DNA of 64,000 nt from Nitrospirota bacterium (GTDB lineage: Bacteria > Nitrospirota > UBA9217): the NCBI GenBank assembly GCA_043731355.1, contig JAYTJE010000028.1:13261-77260 (forward strand), written 5' to 3'. A model generated the notes under the pieces. That model was not told the DNA's origin. It ran no database searches and saw nothing but the letters and a program-made list of their open reading frames with translations. Positions within the stretch are counted from its first letter, which is position 1. Each line of letters begins with the position of its first letter. Below are positions 24,028 through 24,600 of this stretch, piece by piece. Both the position numbers and the translations under genes were made by a program.

Positions 24028-24600
24028 AGACGGATAGACGGGAGACGGGGAGACTTGAGACGGGAGACAGGAGACAGGAGACGGGAGACAGGAGACAGGA
24101 GACAGGAGACAACGGCTTTTGATTCAGTCTATCGGTCTGTCAGTCTATTAGTCTGTAGTCTGTTATTCAGTCTATCAGTCTGTTCGTGAAAAAACCATGG
24201 CTAAGCATAATTTCAGAAGGCTGAAAATTTATCAACGCGCATTAGCATTCGTCGTTGAGATTTATAAAATAAGCAAACAATTTCCTAAAGAGGAAATGTA
24301 TGGCTTAACAAGCCAGATAAGGCGTGCCGCGACATCGGTGGCACTTAATATCGCCGAGGGGAGCGGTAATTTTTCCGAAAAGGAATTTAAACGGTATTTG
24401 GAAATTGCTCTTCGCTCTGATTATGAAGTCATTGCATGCATTGAGCTCGCCGAGCGATTGAACTATTGCAGCAGTGATGATTGTGATAGGTTGATTTCTG
24501 AAGCCGATGAAATTGCAGCTATGATATCTGTCTTTTCAAAAAGTCTGTAGTTTTTAGTCTGCAATCTATCTGTCTGTAGTCTGTCAGTCTGACTTCTCTC
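24028..24600. mobile_element. IVS-like repeat cassette inserted between ruvA and ruvB, carrying a four-helix-bundle protein gene
   Basis: Upstream (GGAGACR)n heptads, conserved junction ACAACGGCTTTTGATTCAGTCT, (AGTCTRY) octamer repeats on both sides of the ORF. It splits the normally contiguous ruvA-ruvB pair. Confidence 0.5.
24197..24550 (+). CDS. Four-helix-bundle protein (23S rRNA intervening-sequence protein family)
   Basis: 117 aa; the LKIYQRALAF...EEMYGLTSQIRRAATSVALNIAEG motif is characteristic of the IVS-protein family. Paralog at 45442. Confidence 0.75.
   Translation: MAKHNFRRLKIYQRALAFVVEIYKISKQFPKEEMYGLTSQIRRAATSVALNIAEGSGNFSEKEFKRYLEIALRSDYEVIACIELAERLNYCSSDDCDRLISEADEIAAMISVFSKSL

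Follow-up and report, generated by a model that had tools for sequence, protein, structure and literature searches.

Between the ruvA and ruvB genes of a Nitrospirota bacterium (assembly GCA_043731355.1, contig JAYTJE010000028.1, positions 13,261 to 77,260; this whole stretch of 64,000 nt is hereafter called the window) lies a 117-aa open reading frame (ORF) of the PF05635 family, bracketed by inverted arrays of 7-8-nt tandem repeats and oriented in the sense of the ruvCAB transcription unit in which it sits. We consider it probable that this element is a promoter-less passenger cassette of the intervening sequence (IVS) type, gained and lost within operons, and that it belongs to a class shared with the ORF-containing IVSs of 23S rRNA genes. 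The evidence that carries this reading consists of the anatomy of the insert, the family of its protein, its presence and absence among relatives, the recurrence of the layout across phyla, a bias in orientation, a repeat unit that goes with the clade of the protein, and an architecture identical to that of a true rRNA IVS.

The insert between ruvA and ruvB

The spacer between ruvA and ruvB covers 24025-24615 (591 nt; all coordinates are window positions, and all features listed lie on the + strand). The upstream host gene, ruvA, occupies 23425-24024, with a TAA stop codon at 24022-24024 (TIGR00084, E=1e-62; RuvA_N, HHH_5 and RuvA_C), and ruvB occupies 24616-25632 (NF000868, E=1.9e-158), with its own GAGG ribosome-binding site and a GTG start at 24616 inside a listed region of 24603-25632 (+); Pfam and NCBIfam equivalog models confirm the identities of the ruv genes. 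An earlier note on this DNA had described a separation of about 590 nt, filled by about 12 GGAGACR heptads, a 22-nt junction followed by AGTCTRY octamers, an ORF of the IVS-protein family, and further AGTCTG-type repeats behind it, and each of these parts was recovered in the present analysis.

Directly after the ruvA stop codon, an outer left arm reading GACAGAC GGATAGAC (24025-24039) has its complement at 24557-24577, with further complementary stretches at 24127-24141 and 24170-24183 (inverted repeats 81-93% complementary), and forms the outer stem in the minimum free energy (MFE) fold. Its unit type corresponds to the GACAGAT heptad of the Coxiella IVS (PMC4990558). The GGAGACR heptad array follows (24036-24111), with 10.7 copies according to Tandem Repeats Finder (score 101-115; also recovered among the direct-repeat families) or 12 units when AGAC cores are counted. 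The loop that separates the two upstream arrays, ACAACGGCTTTTGATT (24110-24125), has a second copy at 22010-22023; the 22-nt junction ACAACGGCTTTTGATTCAGTCT was located at 24110-24131, and the core of this junction, AACNGCTTTTGAYT, was found at two window positions, 22010 and 24111, where chance alone would give 0.17 occurrences. The next array, AGTCTRY, has a period of 8 and about seven copies (24124-24184; Tandem Repeats Finder), and serves as the right arm of a local hairpin; it also repeats, in direct orientation, the array found after the ORF. The latter, AGTCTGY, has a period of 7 and about seven copies (24542-24595; called at 24542-24591 by Tandem Repeats Finder), and pairs with the outer left arm. 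As a refinement of the earlier description, this downstream array overlaps the final codons of the ORF and supplies its stop codon (AAA AGT CTG TAG).

The insert has a G+C content of 43%, and its ORF of 40%, versus 59-63% in ruvA and ruvB. No sigma-70-like promoter was predicted on the + strand between ruvA and the ORF, and the same promoter and terminator scan found no intrinsic (T-tract) terminator in the arrays. Furthermore, Rfam searched at a permissive threshold over 21500-26000 returned no RNA family and no rRNA, the only hit being a chance miRNA match.

The ORF (24197-24550) was assigned to the Avd/S23p-like four-helix-bundle family PF05635/TIGR02436 by profile and structure matches, scoring above the cut-offs of both PF05635 (E=2.6e-37, 127.7 bits, cut-off 33.8), which was its sole Pfam match, and TIGR02436 (E=6.9e-36, 122.8 bits, cut-off 24), with the family model covering residues 8-111 of the 117. 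The solved structures 2GSC (XCC0516, pentameric; E=1.6e-17) and 2RLD also align to it, and the family motif G..R...S...N..E, noted by Lin et al. and in PMC3936711, is present in the form GLTSQIRRAATSVALNIAEG. Compared with its orthologue in L001, a metagenome contig from a relative, the ORF has a ratio of nonsynonymous to synonymous divergence (dN/dS) of 0.13, with dS 0.28, similar to that of flanking genes, and it is kept under purifying selection. An exact-sequence look-up of the ORF returned no record, a phage collection gave no match to it, and the PADLOC defence models matched neither this ORF nor the second PF05635 ORF of the window at E<=0.01.

At the RNA level, the arms share the core AGAC/GTCT and do pair when folded in silico. 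The best long-range pair joins 24026-24046 and 24557-24577 (21 nt, 81% complementary), the fold of the whole insert has z=-4.6, and an outer stem, imperfect as it is, encloses the ORF in both MFE and centroid folds. To this extent the stem enclosing the ORF that the earlier note had predicted was borne out. In addition, the GGAGACR and AGTCTRY arrays form a local hairpin, for which the fold of 24020-24200 reaches -58 kcal/mol (z=-3.7).

Further copies, relatives and homologous loci

The insert is not alone in the window, where a search for further copies recovered an ORF-less twin with its loop and a second PF05635 cassette. The ORF-less sister module (21905-22090) lies upstream of a yebC-like gene (22102-22845; Pfam/NCBIfam) and consists of GGAGACR x13.6, the loop AACGGCTTTTGACT and AGTCTGY x5.6, its loop being nearly identical to that of the ruvA-ruvB cassette. 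The second cassette (~45330-46115, arrays 45336-46110) stands after an Ogg-HhH gene and comprises an upstream CAGGAGA/CAGTAGA array (45336-45425), an ORF (45442-45804) that is 37% identical to the one between ruvA and ruvB, a CAGTAGR x21 array downstream of the ORF (45785-45933), and a complementary TCTCCTG/TCTACTG x23 array (45941-46110). In its RNA fold (z=-16.9), the array ahead of the ORF pairs with sequence beyond it, and the orthologous site in L171 holds a much shorter version.

Among relatives, three metagenome contigs (L001-L003) carry an ORF whose protein is 92% identical at the same position between ruvA and ruvB, with different heptad copy numbers, and the loop type of the ruvA-ruvB cassette occurs in all of their modules. 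A scan with RuvA retrieved four relatives that are closer or similarly close (L084, L085, L087 and L088, with 95, 93, 84 and 82% RuvA identity, respectively). Their spacer is unrelated in sequence, measures 75-138 nt, and lacks both an ORF and a GGAGAC array; identity between the window and these relatives runs up to GATAAG on the left and begins again from CGAGGTAACCAGTG on the right. The comparison of occupied and empty sites thus shows that the cassette is not universal, and its presence and absence within a genus-level group indicates an accessory insertion and not a part of the ruv operon. A more distant relative, L091 (RuvA 61% identical), has at 720-925, at the same ruvA-ruvB site, a TCAGACGG array and a PF05635 ORF cut off after about 31 codons, a remnant that points either to an ancient insertion lost several times over or to an independent second insertion at one site.

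The window, L001, L084 and L085 are roughly equidistant (90-95% nucleotide identity), with signs of recombination. The window ruvA is 96% identical to that of the cassette-less L084 and 87% identical to that of the cassette-bearing L001, with the other genes about equidistant, which suggests a recombination breakpoint near the cassette. Moreover, the loops read AACGGC...TCAG in the window and AACTGC...TTAG in L001-L003, and those of ORF-less and ORF-bearing modules resemble each other more closely within a genome than across orthologous sites, a likeness that suggests homogenisation or recent spread and rests on two diagnostic positions.

Similar variation was observed at neighbouring junctions. 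The junction between the yebC-like gene and ruvC (22860-23423; Pfam/NCBIfam) is 14 nt long in the window, and holds a full ORF-less module in L001-L003 and a degenerate one in L085. The site upstream of yebC is occupied by a GGAGACR/AGTCTGY module in the window and in L001 and L003; in L084 (1500-1640) and L085 (900-1030), the same position has a CAAATAC/GTATTTG hairpin, of a different repeat family.

At least six further intergenic hairpins with 7-8-nt tandem arms are present in the window, at 1683-1760, 3920-4017, 9775-9850, 17745-17810, 25645-25690 and 44223-44305. The small ORF-less hairpin at 3920-4017 shares its unit type with the second cassette (CAGAAGT CAGGAGA ... / ... TCTCCTG). Those at 17745-17810 and 25645-25690 are ATTCAAA/TTGAATC heptad hairpins with nearly the same loop, AGAAATATTCAATA, located directly after stop codons, one of them that of ruvB, and may be either terminator-like or ORF-less members of another cassette family. 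The inverted arrays at 1683-1760, 9775-9850 and 44223-44305 are made of CAGGGTY/GGACCCY, GGTAAGAG/TACCTTCN (period 8) and GTTCRGA/TCCGAAC, respectively, and no PF05635 gene cognate to them lies within the window. Unrelated to the heptad elements, an AAC/AAT run with a 9-nt period was noted in an unannotated region (33728-33801), which would be an Asn-rich stretch if coding.

Beyond close relatives, 80 homologue loci were surveyed, with proteins 37-77% identical and one genome per species. They carry the labels Nitrospirota, Chloroflexota, Bacteroidota, Cyanobacteria, Deinococcota, Patescibacteria, Clostridia, Planctomycetota and Proteobacteria, among others, labels that derive from the bins of metagenome-assembled genomes (MAGs) and may in some cases be wrong, which counts against the reading proposed here. 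In most of these loci, Tandem Repeats Finder detected a 7-8-nt array directly upstream of the ORF and its reverse complement directly downstream (e.g., GCCGAAC/GGCGTTC, GAAGTGT/CACTTCA, GACCACC/TCGGTGG and AGTCCGAA/CTTTCGGA), and in some, including L048 and L075, the arrays are nested as A B [ORF] B' A'. When each upstream flank was aligned to the reverse-complemented downstream flank, 74% of the 80 loci exceeded the 95th percentile of 479 random controls (p=8e-33) and 65% exceeded that of the flanks of 160 other genes in the surveyed loci, with period 7 dominant.

The ORFs are also consistently placed in the sense of their neighbours: the upstream gene is co-oriented in 76/79 cases (96%) and the downstream gene in 67/76, against a baseline of 0.71. 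Insertions within operons include those between the A and B subunit genes of the V-ATPase and between a NYN-domain gene and hsdR, and PF05635 genes have been noted between cmr3 and cmr2 (PMC3936711). The V-ATPase cassette belongs to Ca. Tripitaka californicus (L173-L177, ~1460-1504), in which the upstream CAGGARA array falls within the called end of the A-subunit gene and is translated as a C-terminal tail; the stop codon of that gene overlaps the ATG of the cassette (ATGA). Outside MAGs, the finished genome of a cultured strain, Nostoc punctiforme, carries on pNPUN01 the order CAGGAGT x7, ORF, ACTCCTG. Plasmid-borne homologues of the ORF, as seen in a plasmid collection, are concentrated in Nostoc, Calothrix, Anabaena and Trichormus. 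Short tandemly repeated repetitive (STRR) heptamers were first described in these cyanobacterial genera.

Judged from these sequences, repeat unit and protein clade go together. A CAGA/TCTG or AGAC/GTCT core is found in the heptads next to all proteins with at least 55% identity to the ruvA-ruvB ORF, which come from MAGs labelled Ignavibacteria, Nitrospirota, Actinomycetota, Chloroflexi and Nitrospinota, and the closest homologues (L004-L006, in MAGs labelled as other phyla) keep the junction between ORF stop and array, AAAAGTCTGTAG. Likewise, proteins 70-73% identical to the second ORF of the window have CAG[G/T]AGA / TCT[C/A]CTG units in three unrelated gene contexts. A Mantel test of flank k-mers versus protein identity gave rho 0.40, and 0.23 for control DNA; since the control also correlates, we rely on the explicit cross-phylum cases.

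Proposed mechanism and competing explanations

By analogy with IVSs, the cassette would be transcribed by read-through from ruvA, and its arrays would fold as an imperfect stem composed of the local hairpin after ruvA and the outer stem around the ORF. Such a stem may serve as a substrate of RNase III, as in rRNA IVSs, and cleavage would release the ORF mRNA and part the ruvA and ruvB messages, with translation of ruvB presumably continuing from its own GAGG/GTG start. The effect on the ruv operon is probably mild, because the cassette-less relatives also have a spacer of 75-138 nt and ruvB keeps its own start signals. Gain and loss would most simply proceed through recombination or slippage at the repeat arrays. 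In this context, two arrays in direct orientation enclose the ORF in both cassettes of the window, and a third array, inverted, lies next to them (X-loop-X'-ORF-X' between ruvA and ruvB, and X-ORF-X-loop-X' in the second), and recombination between the direct AGTCTRY arrays would delete the ORF and leave an ORF-less hairpin exactly like that at 21905-22090.

Several observations weigh against this reading. Contrary to the long stem of the earlier note, the main partner of the GGAGACR array is the neighbouring AGTCTRY array and not the sequence across the ORF, and the degenerate arms of the ruvA-ruvB copy pair weakly, with 4-bp AGAC/GTCT cores repeated at period 7 on the left versus 8 on the right and z values of -3.7 to -4.6, compared with -16.9 in the second cassette. 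Array lengths, and above all the ~150-bp hairpin arms of that second cassette, are provisional because short-read contigs end within arrays; an independent one ends inside the second-cassette array, which leaves its copy number uncertain. When arm mismatches were counted on the sense strand of 64 loci, 117 were A·C and 75 were G·U (p=0.003; loci non-independent), which is the opposite of what selection for a sense-RNA helix predicts, and for this reason selection on an RNA stem is not claimed. Upstream arms are, moreover, purine-rich and downstream arms pyrimidine-rich (0.59 vs 0.48; 74 loci). A simple sense-RNA stem is no explanation for this strand asymmetry, and the mismatches leave room for a DNA-level or protein-binding role of the arrays.

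The mobility of the element is subject to similar reservations. The earlier note had taken it for a mobile or selfish insertion, a view supported by presence and absence and by extra copies. Its boundaries call for a caveat: a target-site duplication was sought against the empty sites of L084, L085, L087 and L088 and none was found, and the cassette stands in place of the spacer of the cassette-less relatives instead of interrupting it. Nor is a recombinase encoded within the cassette. Furthermore, the divergence of the cassette between the window and L001 equals that of the backbone, so that the insertion between ruvA and ruvB is not recent, and the G+C content of the surveyed ORFs tracks that of their hosts (r=0.91), so that most copies are long-term residents and not recent arrivals.

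A wider reading is possible, and we offer it tentatively: PF05635 genes with inverted heptad arrays would form widespread self-maintaining cassettes, of which rRNA IVSs are a special case, with each clade recognising its own 7-8-nt unit, and these cassettes together with their ORF-less derivatives would be a major source of tandem heptamers. A self-maintaining cassette class of this kind was not recognised as such in the literature searched, where the role of the conserved IVS ORF and the abundance of tandem heptamers have been treated as separate puzzles. The ruvA-ruvB locus and the comparison of 80 loci join both, in that inverted heptad arrays usually flank members of the IVS ORF family, which are placed in sense within operons, and a general rule under which arrays bracket the family and the unit follows the clade may connect the two problems. 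It also carries a warning that PF05635 genes are not to be read as functional partners of their host operons.

The protein itself could recognise its clade-specific heptad, as DNA or RNA, and thereby spread or maintain hairpins, in a REPtron-like manner in which the gene-bearing cassette is autonomous and ORF-less hairpins are its non-autonomous progeny. We regard this as doubtful. It would agree with a unit that follows the protein in two independent clades, with ORF-less hairpins that share unit and loop with the cassette of the same genome, with loops that resemble each other more within one genome than at orthologous sites, and with an ORF under purifying selection; in addition, 26% of distal ORF-less arrays have 6-mers in common with the cassette arrays at their own locus, versus 2% for other loci, and the related Avd binds nucleic acid and a polymerase (PMC6182149). 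However, transfer of whole cassettes explains the co-inheritance of unit and protein equally well, the Mantel control also rises with relatedness, many hairpin families of the window have no cognate ORF within 64 kb, and the protein has neither a known nor a predicted activity in processing nucleic acids.

It is unlikely that the arrays are host regulatory hairpins (terminators, attenuators, or signals for mRNA stability or RNase processing), with nothing mobile and the ORF either domesticated or an incidental passenger. The arrays are tied to the ORF and not to the site: it is an array that contains the stop codon of the ORF, and this junction is kept in MAGs labelled as other phyla in which the neighbouring genes are unrelated. 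An inverted symmetry centred on the ORF and the nested arrays of L048 and L075 would likewise be unexpected for independent terminators, no T-tract terminators were found, and relatives manage without the element between ruvA and ruvB. On the other hand, the intergenic DNA of the window holds at least nine heptad or octad hairpins, several of them directly after stop codons, such as that at 25645-25690 after ruvB, the site upstream of yebC always has a hairpin, albeit with a different unit in sister lineages, and paired heptanucleotides in Geobacter have been read as regulator sites (PMC2700814).

Strand-specific hairpins formed at the DNA level, comparable to attC sites or to IS200 and repetitive extragenic palindromes (REP), and used by host recombination or replication to insert and excise the cassette, are an improbable alternative. 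The excess of A·C over G·U on the sense strand corresponds to more G·T wobbles on the bottom strand, the polarity of the arms is consistent (purine upstream, pyrimidine downstream), and copy number differs between assemblies, all of which would suit such hairpins; yet the asymmetry is modest and comes from loci that are non-independent, no recombinase is associated with them, and what experiments have demonstrated for the rRNA versions is cleavage as RNA (PMC4990558). Finally, an orphan Avd left by a decayed diversity-generating retroelement is effectively refuted by gene context: the ORF stands between ruvA and ruvB, neither a reverse transcriptase nor a template/variable repeat pair is present, and the only repeats are the 7-8-nt arrays, which are an IVS signature and not a feature of these retroelements. 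There are no phage matches either. In its favour are a weak match to NF033474 DivGenRetAVD (E=3e-4, 20.9 bits), which is far under the 80-bit cut-off, and the PF22296 bAvd recorded on homologues of the second ORF.

Other candidates were considered and rejected. A miniature inverted-repeat transposable element or insertion sequence (IS) type of element was set aside for lack of a target-site duplication against the empty sites, together with the replaced spacer of the relatives; a REPtron proper, because PF05635 is the only Pfam match and there is no Y1/HUH (IS200/IS605-like) transposase; and an assembly artefact, because the architecture also appears in finished genomes and independent assemblies. 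An integron-cassette reading was likewise rejected.

Comparison with rRNA intervening sequences and other known systems

Among intergenic repeats of prokaryotes, tandem heptamers are reported to be the most abundant, and "no clear clue" to what they do is said to exist (10.1101/309039). Xanthomonas has them in convergent inverted pairs (PMC4692102), while in Geobacter heptanucleotides and octanucleotides form paired sites that were interpreted as sites for regulators (PMC2700814). Direct repeats of this kind are described from Beggiatoaceae, Cyanobacteria and Bacteroidetes (PMC4679880). Like the arrays studied here, those of cyanobacteria (STRR), Xanthomonas (GGGAATC), Geobacter and Beggiatoaceae (TAACTGA) have period 7, are intergenic, often form convergent inverted pairs and vary in copy number; the reports themselves (PMC4692102, PMC2700814, PMC4679880, 10.1101/309039) make no link to PF05635, whereas here the arrays bracket a PF05635 gene. 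For heptamers beside an IVS ORF, only a paper on Coxiella was found in a literature search that did not cover most subscription journals, so that a prior description is possible.

REPtrons consist of a RAYT transposase gene between inverted REP/BIME elements, and their genomes also contain many dispersed REPs without a gene. With them, the element shares a small gene bracketed by inverted short repeats that are also found in many ORF-less intergenic hairpins of one genome, and a repeat type that matches the gene clade. The analogy is one of organisation only, since the protein is not a Y1/HUH transposase and the arms are 7-8-nt tandem arrays instead of single palindromes. The likeness to Avd lies in the homologous four-helix-bundle fold of a pentameric family (PMC10053308), and the difference in genomic setting, the ORF being below the Avd cut-off and having no adjacent reverse transcriptase or template/variable repeats. 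The ORF is, furthermore, a full-length member of the free-standing "four helix bundle protein" genes (TIGR02436; 2GSC, 2RLD), thousands of which are annotated outside rRNA. In the annotations and papers searched, those genes are treated as isolated hypotheticals or as "associated" with their neighbours (e.g., cas genes, PMC3936711), and heptad flanks or sense placement within operons do not appear in the family description found.

The closest parallel is with the rRNA IVSs themselves, whose ORF-containing forms include those of Leptospira and Coxiella burnetii. A motif search placed the ORF inside rRNA in none of the 80 genome loci; the plasmid collection, in contrast, contains such a case in Azospirillum lipoferum 4B, whose plasmid AZO_p2 (L180) has an intact PF05635 ORF inside a 23S rRNA gene (Rfam LSU, 2545 bits). 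The insertion measures ~455 nt and sits in a hairpin at model positions 1206-1226, and its flanks, CCGAAGCUGCGG...GGUAGCGGAGCGUUC, mark what we take, by the E. coli sequence, to be the classical helix-45 site. Its arms, CAGAGGA CGGATGA CAGAGGA CGGAGGA and CCGTCCT CTGTCTT CTGTCAT CCGTCTT, form a continuous stem around the ORF (z=-9.3). In the IVS of Coxiella burnetii, two to three GACAGAT heptads precede the S23p ORF, with a strain-dependent copy number, and cleavage of the terminal stem by RNase III, with excision and without re-ligation, has been shown experimentally (PMC4990558). The likeness to an rRNA IVS that the earlier note had drawn is therefore upheld, both by the matching layout of the A. 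lipoferum IVS and by the heptads ahead of the Coxiella ORF.

The two kinds of element differ in several respects. The present one lies between protein-coding genes and not in rRNA, where the typical sites are helices 9, 25 and 45 of 23S rRNA; its arms are much longer and more degenerate, with three arrays in the order X-loop-X'-ORF-X'; its ORF is clearly under purifying selection, unlike the Coxiella ORF, which seems to be decaying and untranslated; and excision by RNase III, shown for rRNA IVSs, is here an inference. Conversely, they have in common a PF05635 protein, complementary arms that enclose the ORF, tandem heptads with a CAGA/GACAGA-type core, a heptad number that varies between strains, a G+C content below that of the host, and a patchy distribution, which suggests horizontal transfer. 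In brief, the element between ruvA and ruvB has the protein family, the symmetry and the unit core of an IVS, and departs from that definition only in its location outside rRNA.

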